Below, piece after piece: positions 1 through 624 of a DNA stretch of 624 bases. A program made the translations under genes and the position numbers. Origin of the DNA: a phage; sequence record DQ006822.1; one strand, 5' to 3'. Positions within the stretch are counted from its first letter, which is position 1. The number at the start of each line of letters is the position of its first letter. The notes beneath the pieces were generated by a model. That model did not search any database and was not told the DNA's origin. It saw only the letters and a program-made list of their open reading frames with translations.

Positions 1-21
1 TTACNCAGTATGAGAGGACAT
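1..21 (+). other. Partial 5' untranslated leader of an ssRNA phage genome (cDNA form) upstream of the maturation protein start
   Basis: Lies directly upstream of the A2-like start codon at 22-24 and resembles, by recollection, the end of the Qbeta 5' leader (...GAGGACAU-AUG). Contains an ambiguous base at position 5. No in-frame stop is visible upstream of the start within the window, so the UTR/CDS boundary relies on homology to the known A2 N-terminus (MPKL...). Confidence 0.6.
12..18 (+). promoter_or_regulatory. Shine-Dalgarno-like ribosome binding site (GAGAGGA) for the A2 start codon
   Basis: Purine-rich gagagga at 12-18, with the agga core ending 3 nt before the ATG at 22. Spacing is short but within functional range. 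The matching position in Qbeta is the known maturation gene initiation region. Confidence 0.5.
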
Positions 22-624
22 ATGCCTAAATTACCACGTGGTCTGCGTTTCGGAGCCGATAATGAAATTCTTAATGATTTTCAGGAGCTCTGGTTTCCAG
101 ATCTCTTTATCGAATCTTCTGACACGCATCCGTGGTACACACTGAAAGGTCGTGTGTTGAATGCCCATCTTGATGATCGCCTACCTAATGTAGGTGGTCG
201 TCAGGTTAGGCGTACTCCACATCGTGCTACTGTTCCGATTGCCTCTTCAGGCCTTCGTCCGGTAACAACCGTTCAGTATGATCCCACAGCACTATCGTTC
301 TTATTGAACGCTCGTGTTGATTGGGATTTCGGTAATGGCGACAGTGCGAACCTTGTCATTAATGACTTTTTGTTTCGTACTTTCGCACCTAAGGAGTTCG
401 ATTTCTCGAATTCCTTAGTTCCTCGTTATACTCAGGCCTTCTCCGCTTTTAATGCCAAGTATGGCACTATGATCGGTGAAGGGCTCGAGACTATAAAATA
501 TCTCGGGCTTTTACTGCGCAGACTGCGTGAGGGTTACCGCGCTGTTAAGCGTGGCGATTTACGTGCTCTTCGCAGGGTTATCCANTCCTACCATAAAGGN
601 AGNGGNAANCNGNTACTGCTGNNA
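22..624 (+). CDS. A2: Maturation (A2) protein of a Qbeta-like ssRNA phage, N-terminal ~200 codons, 3' partial; the frame over roughly the last 25 nt is unreliable because of N calls
   Basis: Uninterrupted ORF from ATG 22-24 to the window end. Translation: MPKLPRGLRFGADNEILNDFQELWFPDLFIESSDTHPWYTLKGRVLNAHLDDRLPNVGGRQVRRTPHRATVPIASSGLRPVTTVQYDPTALSFLLNARVDWDFGNGDSANLVINDFLFRTFAPKEFDFSNSLVPRYTQAFSAFNAKYGTMIGEGLETIKYLGLLLRRLREGYRAVKRGDLRALRRVI(Q/H)SYHKG..., which matches my recollection of Qbeta A2 almost residue for residue. Arg codons are 17 of 20 CGT/CGC, consistent with an E. coli-adapted coding frame. The full protein is ~420 aa, so the CDS continues past the window. Confidence 0.9.
   Translation, partial: MPKLPRGLRFGADNEILNDFQELWFPDLFIESSDTHPWYTLKGRVLNAHLDDRLPNVGGRQVRRTPHRATVPIASSGLRPVTTVQYDPTALSFLLNARVDWDFGNGDSANLVINDFLFRTFAPKEFDFSNSLVPRYTQAFSAFNAKYGTMIGEGLETIKYLGLLLRRLREGYRAVKRGDLRALRRVIXSYHKXXXXXXLLX

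Follow-up and report, generated by a model that had tools for sequence, protein, structure and literature searches.

The A2 protein of the RNA phage Qβ binds the F pilus and, via its N-terminal β-region, inhibits MurA, thereby causing lysis (PMC12856241). For A2 to bind, MurA must be in its closed form with UDP-GlcNAc bound (PMC10610835). In the part of PMC12856241 that cites Cui 2017, most of the MurA contacts are placed in A2 residues 30-120, and the shortest N-terminal fragment that is still lytic is given as residues 1-180. Lysis by the full-length protein is lost upon C-terminal deletions and with some C-terminal substitutions, and the infectivity of the virion is blocked by MurA (PMC12856241), an indication that the sites for the pilus and for MurA lie close together. 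A2 is also subject to control at the level of its RNA: the maturation gene is silenced through long-range RNA structure (PMC2978339), and MurA resistance can be overcome by changes of a single base through which A2 is produced at a higher rate (PMC10614894, from the Young laboratory).

Here we describe a window of 624 nucleotides of phage DNA (the whole stretch analysed), for which a sequence-only reading had proposed that positions 22-582 encode the N-terminal half of a dual-function, A2-type protein. From the ATG at 22, a frame of 201 codons remains open as far as base 624, the last of the window, and in the remaining frames of both strands the longest ORF reaches at most 45 aa. The sequence is clean up to 582; the first N falls at 584 and nine Ns lie within 584-624, where the readable bases still track the A2 of relatives. 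Since the first N falls at 584, coordinate 582 is merely a technical end, i.e., the last complete codon (187) before an N and no biological boundary. Across codons 1-187 we found neither a stop nor a frameshift. As relatives have an A2 of 420 codons, the clean part covers 187/420 of the gene (44.5%), making "N-terminal half" a fair wording. A full-length A2 also has a C-terminal α-region, which is required for incorporation into the capsid and, in the setting of the whole protein, for lysis. At the other end, bases 1-6 correspond to genome nt ~41-46; the window thus lacks the initial ~40 nt of the genome and with them the 5' terminal hairpin. The Ns and miscalls at 1-6 and 584-624 are typical of an unedited Sanger read.

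A megablast comparison with phage genomes matched 31 records, all of them Qβ-type alloleviviruses and always at the A2 cistron. The best nucleotide match was Qβ strain HL4-9 (FJ483841.1, 98.1% identity), and 18 other Qβ-clade genomes showed 93-97% identity, with laboratory Qβ at 93-94%. Window position 7 corresponds to nt 47 of HL4-9 and position 22 to nt 62, the start of a CDS annotated as "assembly/maturation protein" (62-1324); this start register agrees in ten Qβ-clade records, including AB971354 (CDS 61-1323). At the protein level, residues 1-187 are 98.9% identical (E ~1e-124) to the Qβ A2 chain of PDB entries 5VLZ/5VM7/7LHD and 5MNT (described in PMC10610835 as virion and A2-MurA structures, 5VM7 being the A2-MurA complex) and 99.5% identical to the A2 of HL4-9. 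In addition, residues 36-186 matched profile positions 20-201 of 446 of Pfam family PF03863 (Phage_mat-A; E = 1e-34, 120.6 bits against a cut-off of 25), and the database records name the orthologues "A2 maturation protein" or "maturation-lysis protein A2". All ten nearest relatives are without a separate lysis gene and all carry the coat read-through protein A1, i.e., they have the allolevivirus architecture.

These comparisons bear out the proposed identity: both the identity to the characterised Qβ A2 and the PF03863 match assign the region to the N-terminal half of A2, and in the alignment to reference A2 that the sequence-only reading had called for, 185 of the 187 residues are identical, so the product is an A2 homologue. 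We are nearly certain that one sequencing read, taken at the 5' genome end of a naturally occurring Qβ-type allolevivirus, makes up the window, which encodes A2 residues 1-187 in an RNA predicted to pair with itself; as part of the same overall explanation, the source is assigned by its sequence to Qubevirus durum, HL4-9 lineage. The feature is already known, and the window holds no departure from the Qβ paradigm. Its value lies mostly in correct annotation: it represents a wild strain of the Qβ lineage that, in the N-terminal region of A2, is essentially the same as laboratory Qβ. The coordinates of the features discussed here and below are collected in the table.

Table. Features of the 624-nt window, with the basis of each assignment
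Feature	Coordinates	Strand	Basis
Read-start noise in the 5' UTR	1-6	+	TTACNC, against TCACTG in the ten relatives (TW18: TCACTA)
5' UTR, last 15 nt, with the A2 ribosome-binding site	7-21	+	Sequence and alignment, ten Qβ-clade genomes
A2 maturation/lysis protein, codons 1-187	22-582	+	ORF, alignment, Pfam, PDB chain match
Published minimal lytic fragment, residues 1-180	22-561	+	Limits from the part of PMC12856241 that cites Cui 2017
35-codon ORF, best read as a chance by-product	38-145	+ (+1 frame relative to A2)	Internal AUG at 62, GGAG at 52-55 (GGAG-N6-AUG, 52-64)
Codons 30-120, reported main MurA-contact part of the β-region	109-381	+	Limits from the part of PMC12856241 that cites Cui 2017
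V62	205-207	+	Alignment to laboratory Qβ and HL4-9
A69	226-228	+	Alignment to laboratory Qβ and HL4-9
T89	286-288	+	Alignment to laboratory Qβ and HL4-9
Predicted partner of the start-codon region (19-26); codons 104-106	331-337	+	ViennaRNA folding
Predicted 3' arm UCCUCGUUAUACU, pairing with the Shine-Dalgarno region (7-18); codons 133-137	420-432	+	Folding
A2 codons 188-201, degraded (9 Ns), in frame and colinear with relatives	583-624	+	Read-end decay

Laboratory Qβ carries the same gene in the same place, as the first cistron after a UTR of ~60 nt and with the same start codon. Its nucleotide sequence differs from the window at 28 of 561 positions, 26 of them synonymous, and at UTR position -10, where it has A and the window G. 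Few residues change: over residues 1-187 the protein differs from that of laboratory Qβ only by V69A and A89T. HL4-9, a natural isolate from the USA, is the nearest relative that we found (186/187 residues identical), and has A69, T89 and the UTR G in common with the window. The only protein difference between the two is I62V, accompanied by nine synonymous differences, and these together indicate a distinct strain of the HL4-9 lineage and a different record. Neither A69 nor T89 is peculiar to this pair, the former being common to HL4-9, FrMerlot, FrBurgundy, BZ1 and BR12, and the latter to HL4-9, FrSangria, FrMerlot, GIII_C, FrBurgundy and BZ1. Both are common alleles in natural isolates, and both are conservative. 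The sole clean base found in the window alone is a synonymous T at 120.

The same pattern holds across the clade. Compared with ten Qβ-clade genomes, the window shows 10-37 nucleotide differences, most of them synonymous, and dN/dS values against these isolates range from 0.02 to 0.18, which shows purifying selection. Among the 11 Qβ-clade sequences, third codon positions account for 73 of the 96 variable sites. Together with the Pfam and PDB matches, these values lift the coding signal far above what chance would give. The alignments identify the source of the window as a separate wild strain within the HL4-9 lineage, and its A2 as an ordinary one.

Given the 98.9% identity to Qβ A2 and the literature on that protein, we infer that the A2 of this strain binds the pilus, inhibits MurA and brings about MurA-dependent lysis. 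A2, present in one copy per virion, would bind closed, UDP-GlcNAc-bound MurA; this binding would arrest peptidoglycan synthesis at its first committed step and thereby lead to lysis. Both the contact segment (30-120) and the minimal lytic fragment (1-180), with limits taken from the Cui 2017 citations in PMC12856241, are complete and uninterrupted in the clean sequence, so that one read makes available the entire published form of each. The sequence-only reading had further regarded this region as the relevant place to look for variants that modulate lysis. That view is supported, as the contacts and the lytic fragment, as so cited, do lie inside the region, with the caveat that C-terminal deletions and substitutions abolish lysis as well, so the N-terminal half, though necessary, is not the sole relevant region.

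A further point of that reading was that the por mutations, which overcome MurA resistance, lie in the N-terminal part of A2 and thereby mark it as relevant to lysis. Suppression of the por type is reported to act through A2 dosage, i.e., through expression, rather than through the A2-MurA interface, since the single-base changes described increase A2 production; the framing of these mutations is corrected accordingly. We take the por changes to be L28P, D52N and E125G. At these presumed sites, the window has the wild-type residues L28, D52 and E125. When these changes were folded within Qβ nt 1-540, each fell in a local stem and weakened the predicted ensemble by 0.9-5.0 kcal/mol, and the energy for opening the ribosome-binding site at equilibrium stayed at 12.93 kcal/mol. 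As this energy is unchanged, any effect of the por changes on folding would be kinetic. Codon 125 (394-396) is itself polymorphic in nature, encoding E in the window, laboratory Qβ, HL4-9, TW18, FrSangria and BZ1, and D in FrMerlot, FrBurgundy, GIII_C, VK and BR12; the position of this natural D/E polymorphism is presumably a por site.

Expression of A2 begins at a ribosome-binding site whose Shine-Dalgarno sequence, GAGG, occupies 14-17, four nt upstream of the AUG, and is preceded at G12 (UTR position -10) by a natural A/G polymorphism, as seen in the alignment of ten Qβ-clade genomes. Qβ was folded as nt 1-620, 1-900 and 1-1340 using ViennaRNA. Nt 46-57, which include the Shine-Dalgarno sequence, paired with 459-471 at a probability of 0.85-1.0 (~1.0 for most pairs), and nt 58-65, which include the AUG, paired with 370-376 at a probability of 0.84-0.98. 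The window shares with laboratory Qβ both the ribosome-binding site and the predicted long-distance pairing. In 16 of 16 independent MFE folds (the window and 15 allolevivirus genomes), the ribosome-binding site paired with the segment AUG+390..+417. The arms of this pairing differ in sequence among the Qβ clade, M11/MX1 and SP/NL95/FI, yet the pairing is kept. The start-codon helix is the same in the window and ten Qβ-clade genomes, analogous in M11/MX1 and shifted in SP/NL95/FI.

When the 16 sequences were aligned in a fixed register, 82.9% of the cells of the two helices were paired, versus 35-55% when the partner was slid, and five pairs were altered on both sides; for the start-codon helix the paired fraction was 89%. 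The slid controls were highest at +3 and -3, in keeping with a register that shifts by 3-4 nt between clades. These data, a thermodynamic prediction supported by covariation, place the Shine-Dalgarno sequence and the AUG in predicted pairing with distant segments of the coding region. This predicted pairing is probably the known translational repression of A2 (Beekwilder 1996, in the form in which PMC2978339 cites it). An Rfam scan of the window at a permissive threshold returned no curated RNA family; mir-2188 (24 bits against a gathering threshold of 60) and snoU13 (16 against 46) were discarded as sub-threshold chance matches.

By homology and from the literature, the pairing would act as a translational repressor: the RNA of codons 104-106 and 133-137 would pair with the start codon and Shine-Dalgarno sequence of A2 and keep its translation low, and A2 dosage would in turn set the timing of lysis. 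Variants in this region may therefore change lysis via A2 dosage as well as via the protein surface. As the region holds the complement of A2's own ribosome-binding site, an alignment of the protein only misses part of what it encodes, and variants here are to be judged by their effects on the RNA as well as on the protein.

The distribution of synonymous variation also bears on this point. Third positions vary in 8 of the 40 codons 1-40 (22-141) versus 65 of the 147 elsewhere (Fisher p = 0.006, a post hoc comparison), and such low variability suggests an RNA-level constraint on parts of the coding sequence. Along the rest of the gene, third-position variability in the 11 Qβ-clade sequences was 2/20 in 472-531 and 10/10 in 202-231, with 232-291 also singled out, all post hoc. 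We lean slightly towards a reading in which the lysis-modulating potential of the region resides mainly in its RNA, such that variants, including those of the por type, alter the folding of the ribosome-binding site and hence A2 dosage. It draws on the depressed variability of codons 1-40, on the predicted pairing of the ribosome-binding site with codons 133-137 and 104-106 (p ~0.85-1.0), and on two published observations, the silencing of the maturation gene by long-range structure (PMC2978339) and the escape from MurA resistance through raised A2 production (PMC10614894). Against giving the RNA the main role, the protein interface, as delimited in the cited part of PMC12856241 (residues 30-120), lies in this same region, and the two mechanisms can coexist.

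A more specific possibility is that the alleles of this strain, i.e., A69, T89, V62 and the G at UTR position -10, measurably alter MurA affinity or A2 translation, making it a lysis-timing variant. Residues 62, 69 and 89 do all fall inside the contact segment given in the Cui 2017 citation of PMC12856241, and G12 converts an A-U pair into G-U in the pairing of the ribosome-binding site. We nonetheless consider this improbable, given that each of the four alleles is also present in several other strains that were isolated independently and form plaques, and that the substitutions are conservative (V/A, A/T, I/V).

The low synonymous variation near the start of A2 could conceivably have another source, namely a small embedded gene in the +1 frame relative to A2, represented by the 35-codon ORF listed in the table. 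This ORF is open in 11 of 11 Qβ-clade sequences and coincides with the stretch (22-141) in which A2 synonymous variation is depressed; if genuine, it would mean that the best-studied RNA phage harbours an embedded gene of recent origin that is restricted to its clade. We give this idea hardly any credence. Stops interrupt the frame in M11, MX1, NL95 and FI, and within the Qβ clade it shows no sign of purifying selection, with 7 of its 35 residues varying, often radically (C/Y, I/T, R/K, L/P, R/H). Moreover, its product has no membrane-spanning stretch, unlike most single-gene lysis proteins of RNA phages, and RNA structure is the simpler account of the conservation. Because it is interrupted in those four phages and its residues vary freely, the ORF is most likely a by-product of nucleotide conservation, open by chance. 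Other overlapping frames were rejected as genes: the plus-strand ORF at 194-265 does not stay open in Qβ itself, BZ1 or VK, the plus-strand ORF at 314-418 varies freely, and minus-strand ORFs (at most 45 aa) are irrelevant in a plus-strand RNA phage.

Beyond the Qβ clade, homologous A proteins (PF03863) are found in M11/MX1 (group III; 59-63% identical over residues 1-187) and in SP/NL95/FI (group IV, Qubevirus faecium; 45-48% identical over the same residues), and the annotation of those in M11, NL95 and FI reads "involved in particle maturation and bacterial lysis". In both groups an analogous pairing joins the ribosome-binding site to a stretch ~400 nt further downstream, with different arms and a register shifted by ~3-4 nt. 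Some of the records carry labels that call for care. NC_001890.1 bears a Qβ title and MX1 locus tags; its A protein (56-1321), annotated as a "head maturation protease", has only 59% identity with Qβ A2 across residues 1-187. In LC710219.1, the coat cistron (1335-1736) is labelled "lys: lysis protein A2", an annotation oddity.

The A protein of MS2-type phages has the same fold class, with a β-region outside the capsid and an α-region inside it, and it too is present in a single copy per virion and binds the F pilus. Unlike Qβ A2, the MS2 A protein is non-lytic, MS2 having a separate L gene. In MS2-type phages, translation is kept in check because the Shine-Dalgarno sequence pairs with a distant complement, as predicted for the window, and this control runs through a 5' UTR cloverleaf. 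The two types differ in where the inhibitory complement lies: in MS2 it is located upstream, in the UTR, whereas in Qβ-type phages it is located ~400 nt downstream, in the coding region.
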